Assembly (NCBI GenBank): GCA_964016885.1 | Contig: OZ024745.1 | Coordinates: 21,204,001-21,268,000, forward strand | Length of the DNA: 64,000 nucleotides | DNA from: Eledone cirrhosa | Taxonomy: Eukaryota | Direction of reading: 5' to 3' | Part shown: in pieces, positions 32-52,070 of the stretch | Position numbering within the stretch: position 1 is the first letter of the stretch | Layout of the letters: each line of letters begins with the position of its first letter | Program-made: the position numbers and the translations under genes | The notes under the pieces: model-generated | What the model was told of the DNA's origin: nothing | The model's database searches: none | The model's input: only the letters and a program-made list of their open reading frames with translations

Positions 32-87
32 ACTGCTATATATATTTCGATGATAGCCATTGAATGGCTATGACCTCATCAGGCAGT
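32..87 (-). ncRNA. Type I hammerhead ribozyme (minimal, PLE pLTR-type)
   Basis: Minus strand: actgc CTGATGA ggtcatagccat-tca-atggctatcatc GAAA T ATAT A TA gcagt. Stem I actgc/gcagt, long stem II, intact core, AATAAA immediately downstream. Confidence 0.85.
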
Positions 88-1073: not shown

Positions 1074-2853
1074 CACCGTGTAACATTTTTTTGTTCCCCG
1101 GTTCTAAGTGTCATTTCATGGTTTGTTATATCCCGTAATGCACTGGGTAATTGCTGGCCTTGTGCCTAAAGTAGAAACAATTATTATAAAAAACACTATT
1201 ATTTAATCAGAAGTTTGGGTTTGTGGTCAGGAGTTTGATATTTCGAAATTTTCATATTTTTCAAGAGAAAACGCATTTTTTTAAAATTAATCAGTTCATG
1301 TAATTAAATCAACAGAGTATATATTTATTTTATTACACAAGCTTATCAAAAGCAAACAAGTAAAAACAAATAACACTTATAAAGAAACTTATTCACGTCA
1401 GAAATGACTGGATTTTCTGGATTTGCGGTTATAGTCCAGGTCGCATTCCTGCACTAGGCCCCAGATATAGTTCCCCATCATTTTTTCATTGTAGTGGCCC
1501 TGGTACCTCCGCTCTATCTCTTTCACATCTTGTTGGAATCGTTCGCCTTGTTCTTCTGAGTAGGCGCCCATATTGTCCTTTAATTTTTCCAGGTGAGCGT
1601 CCAGCATATGGAGTTTAAGCGACATCCTGCATCCCATGGCGCCAAAAGCCTTTATCAGATCCTGCACCAGTTGCTGGTAGTTTTCAGCTCTGTTGTTGCC
1701 CATGAAGCCCTTAACAACTGCCTTGAAACAGTTCCATGCTGTTCTCTCAATCCTATTTAACTTATTGGAGAACTGGGTAAACTCAAACACCTTCTTTATC
1801 TGAGGTCCAACAAAAATTCCACCTTTGATTTTGGCCTCAGATAACTTGGGGAAGAACTCAAGAAGGTACTTAAAAGCGGCTGATTCTTGGTTGAGAGCCT
1901 TCACAAACTGCTTCATCAACCCCAACTTAATGTGCAGAGGTGGCATGAGCACAATCCTGGGATCAACCAATGGCTCCCACATGACGTTTCGGGTCCCAAC
2001 TACAAATTCTGTTCGCTGCCCCCAGTTCTTTCTTTTGTAGTGGCCAGAGGTGGCTCTGCTGTCCCAAAGGCAGAGGAAGCATTGGAATTTGATAAAGCCT
2101 CCTTGGATTCCAAGCAGGAAAGCCACCATCTTGAAGCCTCCAATGATTTTCCAATTGTACTGGTTGTATTGCAGAGCTTCCAAGAGGACTTTCACACTGT
2201 AGTAATCTTCCTTCAGGCAGACTGAATGAGCTAGGGGCAGTGTTGGGAACTTGTTTCCATTGTGGAGGACAGCCTTCAAACTTGTGGTGGAGCTGTCTAT
2301 AAATAGCCGCCACTCCTTGGGCACAAACGGCACCCCAATAATGTCAAACAGTCCAGGCACGTCATGGCAGAAGCAGAGGCCATCCCTAAGAGTGTAAAAG
2401 CCTGAAAAAGGTTCGTGTCGACTTCTCTGACTTGTCACCTGCACTTGCTCCTTGACCAAGTTCCACCTCTTCATCCTGGAGACGAATGCTTAAAACACAA
2501 CTTACCCTTTATTCAGGGTGCGAAAATCCAGTATCAATAAATCTCTTTAATCCACTTTTTAACAATTTTATACTTTATTGCACTTTTATAATTTTCTTTA
2601 GGTATTACTCTTTATTTTATAATTTTAATTTAACCTGAAACATATATTAAAAAATCATTTAACATAAGCAAATTAAACTTACATACAACGTAAAATGCAG
2701 CATACAAATAATTCTAGTGAATAGCTTAGAATGTTTACAAACCCAAACTTTTAACTGTTTAATAGCACTTTATTATTTATTTGGGACCTAAGCAACACAA
2801 AAAAAGTGATTACAAGCCAGGAACAGAGAAAACAAATTTTTCGTTACACAGTG
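1074..2853 (-). mobile_element. Chapaev3-like (CMC/Transib-related) DNA transposon, internally deleted
   Basis: Termini CACCGTGTAAC (1074) and revcomp CACTGTGTAAC (2843-2853). Subterminal inverted motif aagtttgggtttgt (~1211) / acaaacccaaactt (~2737). Encloses a transposase-like ORF. No clean TSD seen. Confidence 0.65.
1398..2474 (-). pseudogene. DDE transposase core (Chapaev3-like), N-terminally truncated, probable catalytic D>G
   Basis: Motifs WRLFIDSS, CFLCLWDSRA, PPLHIKLGLMKQFVKAL, GPQI, SLKLHMLDAHL, SEEQGERF, RYQG. The expected GD(L/F)K reads GGFK. Confidence 0.75.
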
Positions 2854-5289: not shown

Positions 5290-5340
5290 AGATTCTACAG
5301 GACTAGAACTGTTTCATTCATTAGAAATCATCAGGAATCT
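5290..5340 (-). ncRNA. Type I hammerhead ribozyme
   Basis: Reverse complement of 5781-5831. Confidence 0.8.
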
Positions 5341-5843: not shown

Positions 5844-5944
<101 letters not shown>

Positions 5945-6055
5945 TTGAAAAAAATGAAAACGAAATTTCATTTCTCACTCTTAGTATGGCACTTACTTAA
6001 ATGTAAGTATGTATGTATACGTACATACATATATGTATACAGACGTAAAGTAGCA

Positions 6056-6093
<38 letters not shown>

Positions 6094-6260
6094 TATACAT
6101 ATATACATACAGGTACACATACATATATGCACGCATCAGTTTAGCGGACGCTTATTATAACGCCGCTTTGTTCGTTTGTAAACAAACTGAACAGCCTGAA
6201 TTTATGCCATACGGTGTTAAGGCAACCACGTCACCTTTTTGTTCAACACTGACACAGGAA

Positions 6261-6301
6261 CGATGTACTAGTTTCAAGCTTGTTAGCTATCATCAGCACC
6301 G
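6261..6301 (-). ncRNA. Type I hammerhead ribozyme, retrozyme unit 1
   Basis: cggtg CTGATGA t-agct-aaca-agct-t GAAA CTAG TA catcg. Stem I cggtg/catcg, palindromic ACTAGT stem III. Confidence 0.88.
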
Positions 6302-6724
6302 CATACCCATCTGCAAGATAGTTGAACGTTCGAAAGTATATACTTTCCTTATGAAAATTAACGGCTGAGCAGCCTAATTTGCATATTGAGTGAGTTAAAT
6401 CGATCAGGCGTACCGAAAACGATAAGTTGAAAAAAATGAAAACGAAATTTCATTTCTCACTCTTAGTATGGCACTTACTTAAATGTAAGTATGTATGTAT
6501 ACGTACATACATATATGTATACAGACGTACAGTAGCATGCATATATATATATATATATATACATATATACATACAGGTACACATACATATATGCACGCAT
6601 CAGTTTAGTGGACGCTTATTATAACGCCGCTTTGTTCGTTTGTAAACAAACTGAACAGCCTGAATTTATGCCATACGGTGTTAAGGCATCCACGTCACCT
6701 TTTTGTTTAACACTGACACAGGAA

Positions 6725-6765
6725 CGATGTACTAGTTTCAAGCTTGTTAGCTATCATCAGCACCG
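6725..6765 (-). ncRNA. Type I hammerhead ribozyme, retrozyme unit 2
   Basis: Same sequence as 6261-6301, 464 nt apart. Confidence 0.88.
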
Positions 6766-7001
6766 CATACCCATCTGCCAGATAGTTGAACGTTCGAAAG
6801 TATATACTTTCCTTATGAAAATTAACCGCTGAGCAGCCTAATTTGCATATTGAGTGAGTTAAATCGGTCAGGCATACCGAAAACGATAAGTTGAAAAAAA
6901 TGAAAACGAAATTTCATTTCTCACTCTTAGTATGGCACTTACTTAAATGTAAGTATGTATGTATGCGTACATACATATATGTATACAGACGTACAGTAGC
7001 A

Positions 7002-7089
<88 letters not shown>

Positions 7090-7362
7090 TATACATATAT
7101 ACATACAGGTACACATACATATATGCACGCATCAGTTTAGCGGACGCTTATTATAACGCCGCTTTGTTCGTTTGTAAACAAACTGAACAGCCTGAAATTA
7201 TATATGCATGCTACTGTACGTATGTATACATATATGTATGTACGTATACATACATACTTACATTTAAGTAAGTGCCATACTAAGAGTGAGAAATGAAATT
7301 TCGTTTTCATTTTTTTTCAACTTATCGTTTTCGGTATGCCTGAACGATTTAACTCACTCAAT

Positions 7363-7370
7363 ATGCAAAT
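7363..7370 (+). promoter_or_regulatory. Octamer motif ATGCAAAT upstream of HHR (also 6377-6384, 6841-6848, 25051-25058, 25084-25091, 25664-25671 on minus; 47895-47902 on plus)
   Basis: Exact ATGCAAAT on the HHR-sense strand about 80 nt 5' of the ribozyme in every complete retrozyme-like unit. Function is inferred only. Confidence 0.4.
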
Positions 7371-7445
7371 TAGGCTGCTCAGCCGTTAATTTTCATAAGG
7401 AAAGTATATACTTTCGAACGTTCAACTATCTTGCAGATGGGTATG

Positions 7446-7486
7446 CGGTGCTGATGATAGCTAACAAGCTTGAAACTAGTACATCG
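7446..7486 (+). ncRNA. Type I hammerhead ribozyme, inverted retrozyme unit
   Basis: cggtgCTGATGAtagctaacaagcttGAAActagTAcatcg on the plus strand. Confidence 0.88.
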
Positions 7487-7653
7487 TTCCTGTGTCAGTG
7501 TTGAACAAAAAGGTGACGTGGTTGCCTTAACACCGTATGGCATAAATTCAGGCTGTTCAGTTTGTTTACAAACGAACAAAGCGGCGTTATAATAAGCGTC
7601 CGCTAAACTGATTCGTGCATATATGTATGTGTACCTGTATGTATATATGTATA

Positions 7654-7707
<54 letters not shown>

Positions 7708-7755
7708 TGCTACTGTACGTCTGTATACATATATGTATGTACGTATACATACATA

Positions 7756-7831
<76 letters not shown>

Positions 7832-9199: not shown

Positions 9200-11025
<1,826 letters not shown>

Positions 11026-11589: not shown

Positions 11590-14500
11590 TATCCCTACCA
11601 GCAAAACAAACACCAACACCACCCCAAACACAAATGCCCACCATAAAAGAAAACTACAAAATGAACAACAAACCAAAGCAACACAACAAAAAAACGAACA
11701 ACAATACATACACATTAACACAAACAACAAAAACCTAATGGAGGTCATCTCCCAAGAGCCCAAAGTAGAAACTGAGGGGAAAACTTTTGTCAAGGCAGAC
11801 TCTCAACCACACCTAAAACTGATAAGGGTCTCGATAGAAACCTATCAGAAATTAAAAGACCAATTTTCGCAGGTTTTGGCAACCCCTGTCAAATGCCCAT
11901 TAACCGCGTCCTATTAAAATGTTTCCCCACCCCACTCAACACCCACACCAGCACCCAAATAGAGATTGAACAACCCGATCTCCAGGAAACGAAAAGGTAA
12001 GTGCATCTTTTCTTCCTTTTCCGCCAACTCTTCTCCACCAGCATGGCTAATTTACGAGTTGGAAGTGTGAATGTGCGTGGCCTAGGGATGCCCTGGAAAC
12101 AGGGCCAACTTTTTTAAACGACCTTAGGTAACACGGTATGGATGTGATAGCCATCACCGAGTTCAGGATCCACAACAGGCAGCAACTAACCTCCATCTTC
12201 AATGACTTTGAGATCTACGCATCTTTCTATCAGCCAGGAGATGGAGGAGGAGTGGCTTCATATTTCGGAAAAACCTGGACCTCGAAATACAGCAAGTACA
12301 CTTGGACCCGGGGGGTAGACTGGTAGTCCTAGACGTGAACAGTGTCGGAGGTGGAGCCTTCAGATTGGTGGCCGTTTATGCCCCGACTGGGCAATCGCGG
12401 TCAGACATCTTTAAGCGTCTAGAGCCTTTTCTGGGAACGCCTCGCTCCTTGATTTAGTGGGGGACTGGAATGGTATCCTAGACGCACGATGGGACTATGT
12501 AGGAGCATATCCCAGTAGAGGGGGGTGCAACAACCTCAAAATTTTAATCGGCCAATTACAACTGGCCGATAGATATCGACTAGATTTCCCGACTCCACCA
12601 CAGTGGACGTGGGCAAATCGCAGCGGGACATCTAGATCGTATTTAGATAGGTTCTTTGTTACAGAGAGAAACAAGAAGATGTTAAGCTGTCCACAAATGT
12701 ACATGGTTGCCTATTCAGACCACGAACTAGTCACCTGCATAGTCAACCATGATAGAATACATAGACAAGGACCCGGATGCTGAAAGCTGAACGTGTCGCT
12801 ACCGACACGTAAAGCCTACAATGAACGGATAAGTAGATTAGTTAAGCAACAGTTGACGGGAGCCATCGTCAACGATAGATGGTGGTACTCTCTCAAGAGA
12901 GCAATTAGAGTAGAGTCGATAGCTTTTAGCAAAGAACTAGCCTTAGAGAAAAACAAAACAGAAACAGAACTAATAGCCAAGGTAGATGAGGCGCTTAGGA
13001 GTGGCAACGCAGCTAGAGTGCTAGCAACGGGAACGGCACTGAACCAGTTTTTCGATGCGAAACATGAAGGCTGCGTCGTCAGAAGTAAATCACTTGCTCT
13101 AGGAAACGAGGGAGCAAAACCTGTAAACTGGACCCGAGCGACAGAGGCGAATAGTGGCAACAAGTCCACGATTCGGTCTTTGAAAGACTAAAACGGACGA
13201 GTGCTACTTGACACCATGCGGATGTGCACAGCCTTTCAGCGGCACTTTGTGCAACTGTTCGAGCAGAGCGACGTTGCGCCGAACGGGGTAATGGACTTCG
13301 GTTGATACCTCGACGGCCTGCGGCGTCACTCGAGCATGAGTTTTACATAGTCATGCCGGACTTGTTCTCTGGTGACCTCGGAGCCGTCTACTGCAACTGG
13401 CAGCAGAACGGGAGAATTACCAGTTCTGCAGGAACAAGGGGGACGAACTAAGCAGCTTTAGGCCCATAACTCTGCTCAACACAGAGTTAAAGATTTTGGC
13501 CAAGGTGTTAGCAACGAGGCTGGCGCTTGTCGTCGAGAACCTGGTAGGGAAAGCGCAAAAGTGTGCAATCCCGACCAGGTCCATACACGACAACCTCCAC
13601 CCCATGCGATACATCATAGAGAGGGTTGGGTGTAAACACAGCTTCGGTGGGGCTCTGATCAATTTAGATCAGTCTAAGGCGTTCGATATGGTCGGCCATC
13701 GATACTTGGAAGGGGTTCTCAAGGCGGCCGGTTTCGAACCCGTCTTCAGAGGCTGGATCGCTGTAATTCACACCAACGTCTGCTCGACGGTCAAGGTGAA
13801 CGGCTACCTATCGGAGCCGTTCGCAATCACGTGTTCCATCCAACAGGGATGCCCTCTCTCCTCCATTCTGTACGTACTGACTCTAGAGCCACTACAGCGA
13901 AAGTTGGAACTTCTGCAGGGCATCCCGTTGGAACCGGCATTGCGGAAAACGGCGTCGGCTTATGCCGACGACGTGACAGTAATGGTGTGGGAAACCTCGG
14001 AAATCGGGGCAATCGGCAACTTACTGCAGGAATACGAAAGGCTCACGGGAGCAAAACTGAACCCGGACAAGCCTGTCGGTTTGCAACTCGGAACGTGGAG
14101 AGGCAAACCGATGCCGTCCAACAGCGTCGTCGGACGCTGTACGGACAGATCGGTGAAATTGCTCCGGGTCTGGTTAGGTCCTGACCTCCAGGTGGAGAAA
14201 GACTGGAACGAGGTCACGGCCAAGGTATTTGCGCTCACCCAGAAGTGAGCAGAGTGCAAACTATCCTTGAAAAGTCGAGCGGAGGTGGCGAACACTTTCA
14301 TAGAGTCCGTCATTTACTACCGCTTGACCGTCGTGCCTTGTCCCCGTGAATACCTCACCAAGATGGAACGCATGCCCTTCCAGTTCCTTTGGAAGAAGCA
14401 GGCCCCACTGGTGAAGAGATCCGTCTTCTGTCAGCACCCTTCCAACGGATGGCTGGGAATGCCGTGGCTGGTGATGCGCAAACACTCGCTGAGGCTACGG

Positions 14501-21029: not shown

Positions 21030-22109
21030 TCACACTTTTCGTGTTCTAACAGATATACATAATCAGATGTTACGGTGGGTTACAGGGTAAAGCTGACAGA
21101 GAGGGCAGATATAACACAGTCGTTCTGGGAGTGAGGGTAGATATGTGTTGATGATGCTAATGATGTTAATGATTGTTGAAGTATGGAGATGTATCTAGTG
21201 GTGGCGGAGATGGTGTGTGCGACAGTATACTTACAGGATCGAATTTTGCGAGGGGTTGTAGGTTAAGGCAAACAGGGGAACATGAGGGAATAAGGTTGCG
21301 GGTGTGGGATGGTAGACATGTAGCGATATGTGCGGCGGTGGTGGTGGTTGCGGCGATGGGGTGATATGATCGATATTATATTTACAGGATCAGATGTTAC
21401 TATAGATTACAAGGTAAAACCTGACAGAGAGGACAGATCGAACACAATGTTACAAAGATGAGGGGTGTATGGCGATGTGATTTTTGGTGGGGCTGATGTA
21501 TGCGGCATGATATACAAACTATGGGCTTACAAATGGTTACATGCAATAAAATAAATTCACTGAGATGAGGGATGGTGAGACGGGGCAAAAGTGGTTATTA
21601 TTATGTTGGGTCATGGTTAGTGTGCGGCCCTCCGCCGAATGTTTGTGCAGAAAATGTGTTCGGCCTGGTGTGTCTGCAATTGATAATTATGTTCGACCTA
21701 TAGTTTATGGCAGATTTTAATTTAATTATCTCTGCCGCCTCGGCCAGGCATAACCTGCAGTGGTTTCTGTCACTGGGGAGTTGCGCCACGCGTCTTTGAC
21801 TGACCATATGATCTGGATTCGATGTTCCTGTCCTTGAGGTCCCAGATCAAATCGGCCAGTCTAGTTTGGGATCGTTTCAGCCTATGTTTAAAGGAGCTGC
21901 TATGGTTATACCAGCGCTCCTTAAACGCAGTGGAAGTTGCACCTATATATGAGTACTCTTTATTGCCAGCTGTGACATCGCACCGGTAAACAAGGTTTTT
22001 AACGAGGCACTCCCCGTTTAGTGGGCATTCAGCCCGTTTTTTGCAGTTGCAATTGGGTGTTACCGGTGTGGTGGCATGCTGTGTGGAGCTGGCATGTGGG
22101 TTGTTGTGT

Positions 22110-24730: not shown

Positions 24731-24924
24731 ATATATATGACCGACAGGTGTCACTATTTACCTTTCCTTTGTAGAAATCTATTTTACTCTTAAATGTAAT
24801 CTGAGTTTTTCAAATATTAATGATATTATTTGATTCGTCCGCAATTATGCAAACAGCCTCTTTTTTAAATACATGTCAGTAGAAAGAGCCCCTCCTTCTC
24901 GCTCTTGTGTTGGCATGCAAACAG

Positions 24925-24973
24925 AACTGCAGACACTAATGTTTCTGGGTGATTACCCTTCGTCAGTGCAGTT
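24925..24973 (-). ncRNA. Type I hammerhead ribozyme
   Basis: aactgca CTGACGA a-gggt-aatc-accc-a GAAA ca-ttag-tg TC tgcagtt. 7-bp stem I, GUC triplet. Confidence 0.9.
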
Positions 24974-25224
24974 TCCTGCTTACTTGGCATCTGTCAGAGC
25001 TAATGAAAATATATGATATTTTCTGAAATATACAGTTACAGATCGGTTTGATTTGCATATTAGCAGATCCACTGATCAGCCTGATTTGCATATCAGCAGA
25101 TAGGCCTGTCAGTTTCCTGTATACGAGCGAGAAATGGCCGGCTTTGCCACATTCAAATAAAAAAAATAAAATTTCGCTCTACATGGCTGAATACAATAAA
25201 TGTAATCTGAGTTTTTCGAATATA

Positions 25225-25420
25225 AATAATTGTTTCTACTTTAGGCACAAGGCCAGCAATTATCCAGTGCATTACTGGTACTTTATTTTATCGACCCTGT
25301 AAGGATGAAAGGCAAAGTCAACCTCGGCGGAATTTGAACTCAGATCGTAAAGGGACGTAACTATGCTGGAAAGCATGGCGTCCGACCCTCTACCGATACT
25401 GCCAATCCACCGCCCTTCCC
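25225..25420 (-). mobile_element. Full-length Nin-domain-like tRNA SINE with TSD
   Basis: A box TGGCAGTATCGG, B box GAGTTCAAAT, core gcctttcatccttacagggtcgataaaataaagtacc; TSD ttttcgaatataaataat. Confidence 0.85.
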
Positions 25421-25540
25421 TTTTCGAATATAAATAATAACATTCGATTCGTTTTAATATATGCAATCAGCCTCATTTTTTAAGCCATGTCAGTAGAATG
25501 AACCCTTCATTCTTGCTCTTGTGTTGGCATGTAAACAGAA

Positions 25541-25584
25541 CTGCAGGCACTAATGTTTCTGGGTATAACCCTTTATCAGTACAG
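25541..25584 (-). ncRNA. Mutated hammerhead (G8A, U16.1C)
   Basis: ctgta CTGATAA agggttataccca GAAA cattagtg CC tgcag. Confidence 0.6.
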
Positions 25585-25802
25585 CTCACTGTTCACCTTC
25601 CAACTGTCAGAGCTGGTGAAAATATATGCTATTTTCGAAAATATACAATGACTGATCGGCCTGATTTGCATATTAGCAGACTGGTCAGTCAGTTTCCTGT
25701 ATGCGAGCGATAAATAGCCGGCTTTGCCAAATACAAATAAAAAAGAAAATGTTCGCTCTACATGGCTGAATACAATAAATGTAATCTGAGTTTTTCGGAT
25801 AT

Positions 25803-25994
25803 TAATAATTGTTTCTGCTTTTGGCACAAGGCAAGCAAATACCCAGTGTATTACTGGTACTTTATTGTATCGACCCCGTAAGGATGAAAGGCAAAGTTAA
25901 CCTCGGCGGGATTTGAACTCAGATCATAAAGGGACGTAACTCTATGCTTCAAAGCATGATGTCCGACTCTCTACCGATACTGCCAATCCACCAA
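25803..25994 (-). mobile_element. Nin-domain-like tRNA SINE with TSD
   Basis: Same family; TSD ttttcg(g/a)atattaataat. Confidence 0.85.
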
Positions 25995-26178
25995 TTTTCG
26001 AATATTAATAATAACATTCGATTCGTTTGCAATTATGCAAACAAGCCTCAATTTTTAAGCCATGTCAGTACATTGAGCCCCTCATTCTTGCTCTTGTGTT
26101 TACACATTAATATTGAGTGCTTTTTTAATCAACGATTGAATGTATTTGGTATGATTATACATAAAACACTTTTATGCG

Positions 26179-37975: not shown

Positions 37976-38040
37976 ATTTTATTATGCGCATTTCGAAAAC
38001 ATCATCCTGGGACAAAAATTGTGTTCTCATCAGATAAAAT
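37976..38040 (-). ncRNA. Type I hammerhead ribozyme
   Basis: attttat CTGATGA gaacaca...tgttttc GAAA T GCGC A TA ataaaat. Confidence 0.82.
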
Positions 38041-39996: not shown

Positions 39997-40032
39997 GAGA
40001 ACAATTGTTTCACCTTAGCGGATCCTCAGCTC
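39997..40032 (-). ncRNA. Minimal type I hammerhead ribozyme
   Basis: gag CTGAGGA t-cc-gctaa-gg-t GAAA C AATT G TT ctc. Short inverted repeat 39979-40000 / 40062-40083. Confidence 0.7.
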
Positions 40033-47762: not shown

Positions 47763-47789
47763 GCATATTACATATATATATAATATTGT

Positions 47790-48115
47790 TATTTATATAA
47801 CTATGGCAAAGCCGGCCATTAATCGCTCGTATACATAAAACAGACGGGCTTATCTGCTAATATGCAGATATGGCTGATCAGGCACTCTGCTAATATGCAA
47901 ATCAGGCTGATCAGTCACTGTATATTCCAGTAAATATATATTTTCACTAGCTCTGACAGTTGGCAGGTAAACAGTATACGGTACTGATGAAGGGTAATCA
48001 CCGAGAAACATTAGTGTCTGCCGATCTGTTTATATGCCAACACAAGAATGACGAGGTTGTTCTACTCACATGACTTAAGAGACTGTTTGCATAATGGCAG
48101 ACGAATCGAATATTA
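47790..48115 (+). mobile_element. Solo unit of retrozyme-like subfamily 2
   Basis: Reverse-complement homolog of the 24792-25200 unit, with octamer and HHR. Confidence 0.8.
47979..48023 (+). ncRNA. Type I hammerhead ribozyme
   Basis: cggta CTGATGA ag-ggt-aatc-acc-ga GAAA ca-ttag-tg TC tgccg. Confidence 0.85.
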
Positions 48116-48799
48116 TTAGTGTGTGTGTGTGGGGGGGGGGGTATGTGTGCATGACGGTCGTGTCTAGTGGGTAACATATAGCGAAATAACACATATGACA
48201 TATGTGTATGTGTGGAATAGTTTAGCAGAATAGGAATGGGGCTGGAATAATACGGATTGATAATAGTGAACGGTAAGGAAGAAATGGAGGATAATTAAGG
48301 GATTAAGACATTTATTGGGAATAGTTAACATTATATAGGAAAGAGGAGTGGTGGTGGTGGTGGTAGTGGTAGTGGTGGTGGTGGTGGTGGTAATGGTGGT
48401 GGTGGTGGTGGTGGTGGTGGTGGTGGTGGTGGTGGTAGTGGTGGTGGTAGAGGTGGTGGTGGTGGTGGTGGTGGTGGTGGTGGTGGTGGTGGTGGTGGTG
48501 GTGGTGGTGGTAGTGGTGGTGGTGGTGGTGGTGGTGGTGGTAGTGGTGGTGGTGGTGGTGGTGGTTGGTTGGTTGGCTGCGAAATTATTGGTGATGAAAA
48601 AAGAGATATTGAAGTGGTGGAGAGAAAGAGAGTGAGAGAGATGGGGTCTGAGTTGTAACACTATCATTACACGAAATGAGCGTGTGTGTGTGTGTGTGTG
48701 TGTGCTTGTGTGTGTGTGTGTATGTGTGTGCGTGAGTGCGTGTGCGTGTGCGTGTGTGTGTGTGCTTGTACCTGTATGTGTTTTTGCAAGCACGCTTAG

Positions 48800-48833
<34 letters not shown>

Positions 48834-48872
48834 ATGTATATATATATGTGTATATATATATATATATATATT

Positions 48873-48927
<55 letters not shown>

Positions 48928-48932
48928 CTATA

Positions 48933-48973
<41 letters not shown>

Positions 48974-49100
48974 ATGTATATATATATATATATATATAAC
49001 GATATTAACAAATGGAAACTATATTTATAAAACCATATTTATTTCATTATACATATTTCAAGAAAACAAATTATACAATTTTTTAATTACCTTAATCTAA

Positions 49101-50179
49101 AAGTAGAAATAGAGAATAACCATAAAATAGTCAATTTTCTAGATGTAACACTAAATCTTAACATATGTCTTCATTATCCATTTCACAAACTAAATGAGAA
49201 CTTAAAGTATGTCAATTTTAACTCTAATCACCCCAGCTCCGTTAAAAATACTATAGTGAACTCTGTACAAGAACGAATTTCGAGAATTTCAGCTAATCAG
49301 AATATATTTGATGAAAAAGTACATTATTACAACGAAGCGTTAGGTAGAGCTGGGTATAGAAATAAAATTAAATACATCGATAATAATAATAATATAACAA
49401 CTAACCATAATCGTAACAATTTTAATTATGGTAACAGTTTTAACAACTATAATAGAAAACCTTACATTAATTCCGAAAGCCGAAAAAGAAATAGAACTAG
49501 GAACATATTATGGTTCGCTCCTCCTTTCTCATTAAATATTAAAACACCTATTGCTAAACTATTTTTTAAAGCTCTTGACAAATGCTTCCCTAGAACACAT
49601 AGATATTACTCAATTTTTAATAGACATACTATAAAATTAACTTATTCTTCCACAAAAAATTTAGCGCAAAATATTAATAGAATTAATAATAGAAATTTAA
49701 AACCTAACCAAAATACCAATAATAACCCAAGCAATATTCAATCTGATAAATGTAACTGTAGAAATAAATCTAACTGTCCGTTAAATAACAATTGCTTAGC
49801 TAAAAATATAGTATATAATTGTAATGTAAAAACCAATTTAAATTCATTTAATTATGTGGGATCTACCTCCACAGAGTTTAAATCCCGCTTCAATAATCAT
49901 AAAAATTCTTTTACAGATCCAAACGAAAAATTTTCAACCTCTCTATCTAGCCTATTATGGGACCTAAAACTAGAGAACGTTGAATATTCGTTGATTTGGA
50001 ATATTATTTCAAAAGCTACTCCTTTTAACTCCTCTTCAGAAAATTGCGATCTTTGTATAGAGGAAATATTCTTTATATTAAAGACCAAAAATTCCCTGAA
50101 CTTAAGGAATAATTTATTCAGTTGCTGCAGTCATAGATTAAACTCGACGTTTAAATATACATATAAATTTAAAATGTAG
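49101..50179 (+). pseudogene. PLE ORF C-terminal part: RT thumb, CxCx5Cx5C linker, GIY-YIG endonuclease
   Basis: VNFLDVTLNLN...YVNFNSNHP...ERISRIS...ILWFAPPFS...CNCRNKSNCPLNNNCLAKNIVYNC...YVGSTSTEFKSRFNNH...LWDLK...CDLCIEE...CCSHR. Frame open from ~49101 to the stop; 5' part missing. Confidence 0.9.
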
Positions 50180-50410
50180 TATATAATTAATTAATTAATT
50201 TTATTAATATATGAAACCTGTCGATAAATCATTAGATTCCTTCATCTTTTTTGACTGATTAAACACTTTTCTTCCTAAATATAAATAAATATAAATATAA
50301 TAAACTATTCTAGAAAGGAGCTCTTGAAAGGAGAAAATATTTCCTATTTCTTATTTTTATTTTTTTGTTTTTTATTTTTGTTTTTTTATTTTTGTATTTT
50401 GTATTTTTTT

Positions 50411-50465
<55 letters not shown>

Positions 50466-51697
50466 TTTTTTTTTTAATTTATTTTATTTATTTATTTTTT
50501 TTTTTTTTATTATTGTTCTGATAGCTTCTATTTTCGAAAGTTTATCCTTTCAATATTTTGAGTTAAATATACGTAAGATAAATTTCTATACTAAATCTAT
50601 TAAACGCTATTATTTTGAAATTATAACTTAAAATATTCTATAATATTTTAAAATTGTATTGCTTTTAAAGTTATATTGCTATAATTATATTTCCAAATTG
50701 TAATATAATCCTTTTGTATTTTATGTACTCAATTATACTATGTACTGTATTGATGTATACTTCTCTCTATATGTGAGTATATATGTATATGTGTATATTG
50801 ACATACATGTACATATGTTCTATGCGTTTTTATGAATATATGTCTGTCTGTATGTATGTGTATGCGTGATGCGTATCTAAGGGTACACACACATGTATAT
50901 ATATGTATATGTGAGAATTATATTTGTGCATGCGCGTGTATATCCATACAATTTGATTGCACGTATGTATAGTGTTTATCCCAATGATTCCTGACAGATA
51001 AACATATTATTAACAGCCATAAATACATAACAGGTAGTCTTATTTAATAACATAAAGTGTGTATAACATTAAATTAAAGAATCCTTTATGCTTTGTGTAT
51101 ATATATTATATACGTAGTTAGATATGGTATGTATTTTATAAGTGTGTATATATATTTATATGTATTTTTGCGTGTGTGTACGTGTTATATGATATGTAGT
51201 TCTCTAGCAATATATGGACTTCTTAATGTATAGATCCCAATTTTTAATATATTGATCTCAATTTTTAAATGATTAACTGATCATATTTAAACAATGATTA
51301 ATTTCTCATATTATATATGTATATTCCATTCATGATTATTAACATTTCTAATTTTATTTATTCATTTCATCTCAATTGTTAAGTTAACTCAACAAGATAT
51401 GACTTAGAGTTTTCGTCCTCTCCCCTTCTCTCTATCTCCTCTCTCTATCTATATCTTTCTCTCTCTGTTGTTTTGGTATCTCTCTCTCTTTTCTCTCTTT
51501 TTTTCTTTCTTTCTCTCTTTTTTCTCTCTCTCCTTCTTTTTCTTTCTCTATAAACCAACGGCTTATTTTAAAAATAAAAATATCCAATACTAATAATAAT
51601 ATAAGTAAACAACTCCACTATCCGGGAGCTTCCAACAGTAATAGTTGCATTTTTTAAGGGTATGTCAATATTTATTTATAAAACTGATCTATATTAT

Positions 51698-51760
51698 ATT
51701 TTGTCTGATGAAAGCACACCATAATTTAACTTGGTGTCCTTGAAATATGTATAATGAAAT
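51698..51760 (+). ncRNA. Type I hammerhead ribozyme in PLE pLTR
   Basis: attttgt CTGATGA aag-cacacca...tggtgtc-ctt GAAA T ATGT A TA atgaaat, overlapping AATAAA. Confidence 0.8.
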
Positions 51761-51885
51761 AAATATGGTTTTATAAATATAGTTTCCATTTGTTAATATC
51801 GTATGTTTACTCCAAATACTTGTTGAGTGCTTTATATCAGTTATAAAAATATTTGCTTGTTGTATCCCAACAATTTAAATAGAAC

Positions 51886-52070
<185 letters not shown>

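Follow-up and report, generated by a model that had tools for sequence, protein, structure and literature searches.

An octamer-bearing block upstream of hammerhead ribozymes as a candidate POU/Oct site in two families of retrozyme-like repeats

Does an octamer lying about 80 nt upstream of a hammerhead ribozyme provide a short non-coding repeat with its own promoter? This question is raised by the monomer at 47783-48118 of a 64-kb window (the whole stretch of 64,000 nucleotides analysed here), for which a first-pass annotation had proposed that such an octamer is fixed in every complete retrozyme-like unit and might act as an internal promoter or enhancer. The transcription of animal retrozymes is unsettled in print. 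A 2020 review (PMC7761336) describes metazoan retrozymes as seemingly devoid of a promoter and of a conserved motif, whereas older work on newt and schistosome repeats describes internal promoters.

Octamer-bearing units and their ribozymes

The octamers associated with ribozymes lie in two families of repeats, whose features in the window are the following.

47783-48118, plus strand: family-2 retrozyme-like monomer, 5'-truncated, 336 nt, 38% GC, flanked by an (AT)n and a (GT)n tract
47853-47885, plus strand: distal 33-bp module, containing ATGCAGAT at 47862-47869
47892-47914, plus strand: conserved 23-nt block in the proximal module, common to family 1
47895-47902, plus strand: proximal octamer ATGCAAAT in a WATGCAAATNA context, candidate POU/Oct site
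47921-47944, plus strand: weak TATA candidate, an AT-rich stretch in which TATA-like words occur at 26 nt and at 40-45 nt from the octamer start
47959-48041, plus strand: hammerhead of type I whose stem I is extended, with C3 at 47984 and cleavage predicted 3' of GUC at 48018
48064-48078, plus strand: second block common to family 1, PSE candidate, also able to pair in RNA
48083-48118, plus strand: 3' stretch with an inverted repeat at 48085-48102, candidate hairpin for recognition by RT or another protein
24791-26100, minus strand: family-2 tandem array, consisting of a partial unit, SINE, unit 25421-25794, SINE, unit 24807-25212 and a short tail
25051-25091, minus strand: two exact octamers (25084-25091 and 25051-25058) in duplicated modules, with an intact hammerhead behind them (C3 at 24966, predicted cut after 24932)
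25664-25671, minus strand: single-module octamer, with a broken hammerhead behind it at 25579-25546
5940-7201, minus strand: family-1 tandem arm with a 464-bp period, octamers at 6377-6384 and 6841-6848, C3 at 6296 and 6760
7199-7759, plus strand: family-1 inverted arm of the same insertion, octamer at 7363-7370, C3 at 7451, predicted cut after GUA at 7481

The monomer shows 81-82% identity to the two family-2 units at 24.8-25.8 kb, and family-2 units are 81-84% identical among themselves. The family-1 insertion comprises 2.7 tandem units plus the inverted arm within (TA)n, and its units differ from one another by 5 to 10 positions in about 420 nt. The units are non-coding (longest ATG frames of 47-62 aa, GC of 35-38%), and self-comparison of the window revealed no paired LTRs; a GC below 50% and the lack of an LTR, PBS or PPT are characteristic of metazoan non-LTR retrozymes. 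Two consecutive intact hammerheads in short tandem units are present in family 1 (C3 at 6296 and 6760), which qualifies, by its sequence features, as a metazoan non-LTR retrozyme. The family-2 loci of the window, one monomer and one array with one intact and one broken hammerhead, are without two consecutive intact copies; family-2 contigs of the public run X1 extend into the unit junction. Contrary to the first-pass annotation, which had counted the monomer as a complete unit, it is truncated at its 5' end. The units of both families, which are short tandem repeats without coding capacity and carry hammerhead motifs of type I, are likely to be retrozymes moved by Penelope-like elements.

In the family-2 array, two adjacent units carry a tRNA-type SINE with A- and B-box-like words at the same position (25231-25415 and 25812-25992, minus strand), each in ribozyme orientation and with its own 18-nt target duplication. 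Likeness between the two SINEs is 90%, whereas a copy at 30860-31043 matches one of them at 96.7%, a pattern suggesting that the same site was hit twice independently. No SINE is present at the last array junction or in the X1 contigs. It could be a source of a Pol III promoter for the family-2 units that contain it; no tRNA gene was found in the window.

An exact-match search of the window confirmed the octamer ATGCAAAT at all seven positions previously reported, namely 47895(+), 7363(+), 6377(-), 6841(-), 25051(-), 25084(-) and 25664(-). Each lies on the same strand as its downstream hammerhead core, as claimed, and the claimed spacing of about 80 nt also holds, with 80, 80, 80, 81, 84 and 84 nt between the end of the proximal octamer and core C3. 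For the upstream copy of a duplicated module, the distance to C3 is 114 nt (47862) or 117 nt (25084). The local duplication noted in family 2 is present as a 33-bp repeat at 47853-47919 with an 88% match, where position 47862 reads ATGCAGAT, a non-exact octamer differing by one base and lying within a perfect 7-bp inverted repeat.

The whole window contains 12 exact octamers, against 5.55 ± 2.48 expected from shuffles, seven of them in three insertions of two lineages and five elsewhere. We rejected this difference as enrichment, since the count is pseudo-replicated and 7, once the insertions are collapsed, is within chance. With three insertions of two homologous families, the seven octamers therefore represent two independent observations.

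A structure-aware scan identified 11 structurally intact type I hammerheads in the window and none in 10 shuffles. An exact octamer is found within 250 nt upstream of five of the 11, and is absent from that range in the other six, which belong to four other families (82, 5334/5787, 38033/38151 and 51705) and several of which are truncated or head-to-head copies. The claim that every complete unit bears the octamer thus stands for two homologous families and fails for six hammerheads of four others. A sixth octamer-associated ribozyme (25579), behind the octamer at 25664, turned out to be broken by changes at G8 and U16.1. The octamer feature is real, but the first reading overstated its number and scope.

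The hammerhead core and three helices were found in five octamer-bearing units. Rfam gave no match at gathering score, family 1 yielding only 17-bit HH9 matches, so that the hammerhead call rests on core, helices and covariation. A paired change at 47980/48022 across stem I, observed in reads, supports the ribozyme fold. Stem III of family 1 is short and palindromic, so that its cleavage may depend on a dimer.

Three more hammerhead families are located at 37-82(-), 5296-5334(-)/5787-5825(+) and 37983-38033(-)/38151-38204(+), two of them as inverted pairs; together with the hammerhead at 51705 and the two octamer families, this amounts to six hammerhead families in 64 kb. Family 1 sits in a (TA)n tract that directly adjoins the 5334/5787 pair. 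Core-like hammerhead sequences at 9406-9432(-) and 40008-40029(-) failed the helix filter and are possible minimal Penelope-type variants.

Penelope-type hallmarks are apparent in family 1, which shows tandem and inverted arms, a (TA)n target and one 3' end that is about 60 nt longer. Such tandem or inverted insertion, tail and microsatellite target point to mobilisation by Penelope-like elements and not to membership in that group. No ORF combining RT and GIY-YIG was detected in the octamer arrays or joined to them.

The window also contains a 5'-truncated Penelope-type element at 48851-51954, with an RT end and GIY-YIG-like ORF at 49031-50179 (382 aa) and a long AT-rich terminal region whose hammerhead lies at 51705; the repeat end recurs in inverted orientation at 48851-49070. 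This ORF, a Penelope-type RT/GIY-YIG remnant, shows 40% identity to 700-aa database proteins, and one database relative has RVT_1 and GIY-YIG matches; the ORF itself has no Pfam match, and searches of viral contigs and solved structures returned no relative. We rejected it as a part of the octamer units, as it belongs to another hammerhead family. A second Penelope-type fragment lies near 21824-22051, a LINE-type reverse transcriptase fragment occupies 13376-14248(+) (RVT_1, E 6.6e-24), and 1398-2489(-) contains a 363-aa frame that looks transposon-derived and has no Pfam match.

A 23-nt block shared by the two families

Families 1 and 2 align collinearly with about 55-57% identity overall, and remain homologous without the octamer block (score 37, a value attained in 1 of 300 shuffles). 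The segment that they share best, a block of 23 nt, begins three bases 5' of the octamer. This block matches family 1 at 21 of 23 positions in the copy at 47892-47914 and at 20 of 23 in the other two family-2 copies, compared with 14-18 of 23 in the best inter-family window of the ribozyme region. Ungapped inter-family scores are 36 for the block and 24 for the hammerhead region, against 29 for the best of 100 shuffles. The first-pass annotation had ranked the octamer as the best-conserved feature apart from the ribozyme; the top score is borne out, but the block outscores the ribozyme instead of coming second to it, and the conserved unit is the 23-nt block, of which the octamer is a part. 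A 22-nt pattern with up to 3 mismatches matches the window seven times, against 0.01 expected.

We simulated uniform decay by substitution and indel, matched to the observed alignment score (n=787). A 20/23 window was attained in 58 of the 787 simulations, 21/23 in nine and an exact 11-nt run in 109, which corresponds to p ~0.07 for the conservation of the block at 20/23 and ~0.01 at 21/23. The 20/23 value is the fairer one, since most family-2 read copies differ from the copy at 47783-48118 at position 47908. With two independent lineages, the conservation of the block against uniform decay is suggestive.

Four public runs, X1 (organism A), X4 (organism B), X5 and X6, of which X5 and X6 are reduced-representation libraries, were aligned to 47770-48120 at 80% likeness. 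Matches were found in 2369 contigs (X1), 1641 contigs (X4), 31,953 reads (X5) and 33,516 reads (X6), family 2 being multicopy in two organisms across these runs, and the proximal octamer is the majority sequence in family-2 reads. The variant rows considered are the best-supported 40 of 123, each with a share of at least 54% in some run, so that minor variants lie outside this view. Among these 40 rows, 30 positions are variable in family 2 and nine are private to the copy at 47783-48118, and none falls within 47887-47907 in the four runs and two organisms. Still on the best-supported 40 of 123, neither the octamer (0 of 8 positions variable within family 2, p=0.46) nor the block (1 of 23, p=0.35) is measurably depleted of variants, and quiet stretches of equal or greater length (21, 25 and 36 nt) occur elsewhere in the unit.

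Many copies carry, further upstream, a third 33-bp module bearing an exact octamer, as indicated by loose ends in 5854 and 6233 reads and by go-back joints in 1384 and 1326 (X5 and X6, respectively). As no majority change appears at 47867 among the best-supported 40 of 123 rows, the middle module seems commonly to have the ATGCAGAT form, which would then not be a private mutation. We counted variation by hand in ten module variants (six window copies, three read strings and one inferred from the variant rows). The octamer varies at 1 of 8 positions and its flanks at 13 of 20 when family 1 is included (Fisher p=0.016); when it is left out, the counts are 1 of 8 and 8 of 20, which is not significant (p=0.17). 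Read-depth peaks over the octamer were left out of the evidence, because multi-module copies pile up and X5 and X6 are reduced-representation libraries.

The block might simply be the stretch that by chance decayed least after the families split, without any function. The 58 simulations that reach 20/23, the lack of variant depletion inside family 2 (best-supported 40 of 123 rows) and the approximately 5.5 exact octamers expected per 64 kb are all consistent with such an origin. Nevertheless, 21/23 was reached in only nine simulations, the module count that includes family 1 sets the octamer apart from its flanks, and the least-decayed stretch fully fits an 11-nt transcription factor consensus, keeps a constant spacing to the ribozyme and has been repeatedly multiplied, a combination that chance would not lead one to expect. 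We consider a chance origin quite unlikely.

The block as a DNA site or an RNA structure

The matrix consensus of Oct-1 is WATGCAAATNA (PMC2475627). All seven unit octamers fit this consensus, compared with two of the five background octamers, and its free N is a position at which families 1 and 2 differ. Our preferred reading, to which we assign a probability of about 0.5, is that the octamer is the Oct/POU site at which a Pol II promoter lying inside the unit is activated, in a retrozyme mobilised by Penelope-like elements. The earlier idea of an internal promoter or enhancer thus comes out as plausible and precedented, with the block as the best-kept segment, on sequence evidence that is modest. 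Against a promoter stand the frequent non-octamer variant in the middle module, the recurrence of the block's 3' half downstream without an octamer (7545-7561 in the family-1 inverted arm), the extra modules in reads that have T in place of the final A of the matrix, two bases past the octamer, and the seemingly promoter-less state of metazoan retrozymes according to the 2020 review (PMC7761336).

Other promoter parts are less distinct. TATA-like words lie 40-45 nt past the octamer in both families, with a cross-family score of 18, which is at shuffle or chance level, and inspection of the unit sequences established no clean TATA box or PSE. A second block shared by both families lies 169-178 nt past the octamer, the copy at 48064-48078 beginning at 169 nt. 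In snRNA promoters, the DSE is described at -250 to -170 and the PSE at -70 to -40 (PMC9652321); the spacing of the second block, a PSE candidate, falls within the 100-210 nt range that these positions imply.

Two layouts can be envisaged for such a promoter. In the first, the octamer would act with a TATA-like box and transcription would start just 5' of the ribozyme core. In the second, of snRNA type, the octamer would be the distal element and the block 169-178 nt downstream the proximal one, with the ribozyme between them and a start near the unit junction. A complete snRNA-type promoter straddling the ribozyme, with the octamer upstream, a PSE about 170 nt downstream, the hammerhead in the spacer and a strength tuned by stacked 33-bp modules, is in our estimate distinctly improbable.

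Alternatively, the block could be kept at the RNA level, for a Penelope-type RT/endonuclease or another RNA-binding protein, the octamer match being incidental and transcription coming from read-through. Consistent with this, the family-2 module region 47848-47920 folds strongly (z -5.6), the folding of entire units is stronger than that of shuffled sequences (z -3.9 to -5.8), the octamer of the single-module family-2 unit is predicted to sit in a hairpin loop, and the ATGCAGAT variant completes a perfect 7-bp stem. Furthermore, each unit contains the block's 3' half twice, and conservation reaches 12 nt past the octamer. In the predicted folds, however, family 1 places the same octamer in a different, local stem, and the duplicated units pair it otherwise; the predicted probability that all 8 octamer nucleotides are unpaired is 0.002 for family 1 versus 0.27 for the single-module family-2 unit. 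As the predicted partners differ from copy to copy, no common RNA structure explains the octamer.

Moreover, it is the 3' hairpin and the end common to the insertions, and not the octamer, that look like RT-related sites. In both families, the 3' region (48083-48118 in family 2, 7551-7585 in family 1) contains an inverted repeat, with a stem of different length in each family, and then one short word common to the two. The inverted repeat at 48085-48102 has two private mismatches in the monomer copy, and 48083-48118 is the longest family-2 stretch without a variable row among the best-supported 40 of 123. A helper enzyme would more plausibly recognise this hairpin region than the octamer, and we regard conservation of the block at the RNA level as unlikely.

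The block might also be a DNA-level site of another kind, either an endonuclease or integration site of the helper or the target of a non-POU factor that reads all 23 nt. A wider site would agree with the five of 12 letters 3' of the octamer that are invariant in all ten module variants, and with the 3' half of the block, which is palindromic in family 2 (near-palindromic overall). On the other hand, the array ends of both families coincide with a different shared block, of 9 nt and some 100 nt 5' of the octamer, and not with the 23-nt block, and the 3' half is more variable than the octamer itself. Such a site appears very improbable to us.

Precedents and a possible transcription cycle

The preferred reading, an Oct/POU site in a unit-internal Pol II promoter, has a close precedent in newt satellite 2. 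The promoter of this repeat reportedly comprises an octamer and a PSE. Like our units, newt satellite 2 is non-coding, tandemly repeated and equipped with a type I hammerhead, and it has an internal snRNA-type Pol II promoter (Coats, Zhang and Epstein 1994, cited in PMC2220036) where ours have a candidate; the units here differ in being from an apparently invertebrate, octopus-like genome, with the octamer 80-84 nt 5' of the core and multiplied in 33-bp modules. In the SM-alpha hammerhead repeats of schistosomes, each repeat is described with a Pol III promoter and the upstream copy transcribes the next one (PMC6765202, PMC2220036). Our units similarly combine a hammerhead per repeat with a promoter, a candidate one in this case, but contain an octamer instead of a Pol III promoter, and Pol III-type boxes occur only in the SINEs of one array.

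In the Penelope pseudo-LTR, an internal promoter in the hammerhead-bearing terminal repeat is described as transcribing the next tandem copy (PMC2377424, PMC8557442, PMC6765202), this promoter being TATA-less and LINE-like (Schostak et al. 2008, PMC2377424; Craig et al. 2021, PMC8557442; PMC6765202). The octamer arrays share with Penelope elements their tandem and inverted insertions, tails and (TA)n targets, and unlike them are without an RT/endonuclease ORF; conversely, the Penelope-type element of the window has no octamer in its 1.7-kb terminal region (50180-51870). A promoter is also described in the LTR of a plant retrozyme. The concept of a promoter plus hammerhead cassette is therefore not new, given the published descriptions of newt satellite 2, the schistosome repeats and the Penelope pLTRs.

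Published metazoan non-LTR retrozymes have units of 350-390 nt in mussel and 330-350 nt in axolotl (Cervera and de la Pena 2020, PMC7229834; Li, Clavereau and Pollet 2026, 10.64898/2026.07.22.740005). The units described here are similar in size and likewise are short, low-GC, non-coding tandem units with type I hammerheads and co-occurring Penelope-like elements, and a mismatch at the base of stem II recalls one described axolotl family (PMC7229834, 10.64898/2026.07.22.740005). Self-cleavage and accumulation as linear and circular unit RNA are traits of the published retrozymes; our units are known from sequence. The main texts of PMC7229834 and of the preprint 10.64898/2026.07.22.740005 contain neither the word octamer nor an octopus case, and that of the preprint does not contain the word promoter. 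No description of an octamer in invertebrate retrozymes was found in the literature searched, a result on which supplementary sequence sets could still bear.

Searches for related sequences elsewhere gave chance-like matches. A 20-nt motif pattern matched no viral contig, and the 62 metagenome stretches that it matched were rejected as chance, since none resembles the units any further or has a hammerhead core at a distance of up to 220 nt. The 37 viral stretches that matched an octamer-gap-core pattern were likewise rejected as chance; a loose helix filter retained three of them (one sequence, 4+1 pairs), and none of the 37 was unit-like. A 10-nt octamer pattern matched the Naiad, Chlamys and Hydra element sequences twice in 584,131 characters, both times in coding-looking sequence.

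We hypothesize the following cycle for the octamer units. A POU factor bound to the octamer would activate a Pol II start inside the unit, and the transcript would run from one unit into the next. The hammerheads would then cut out unit-length RNA, of 464 nt in family 1 and about 375-410 nt in family 2, which a host ligase would circularise and a Penelope-type RT/endonuclease would copy back as tandem or inverted arrays. Lineages without any remaining octamer would no longer be transcribed, so that the site would be kept, and the extra 33-bp modules would represent added or spare sites.

As the concept is old, what is added is a further case with an element open to testing, and not a new kind of system. 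Retained in two families that have diverged and available in natural variants (one to three modules, exact or variant octamer), the 8-nt site lends itself to a direct reporter assay in an invertebrate. If the less probable reading of a complete snRNA-type promoter straddling the ribozyme were true, then, together with newt satellite 2, it would mean that distant animal retrozymes use the host Oct/SNAPc machinery, either by common descent or by repeated capture, and this use would explain their high expression in all tissues.
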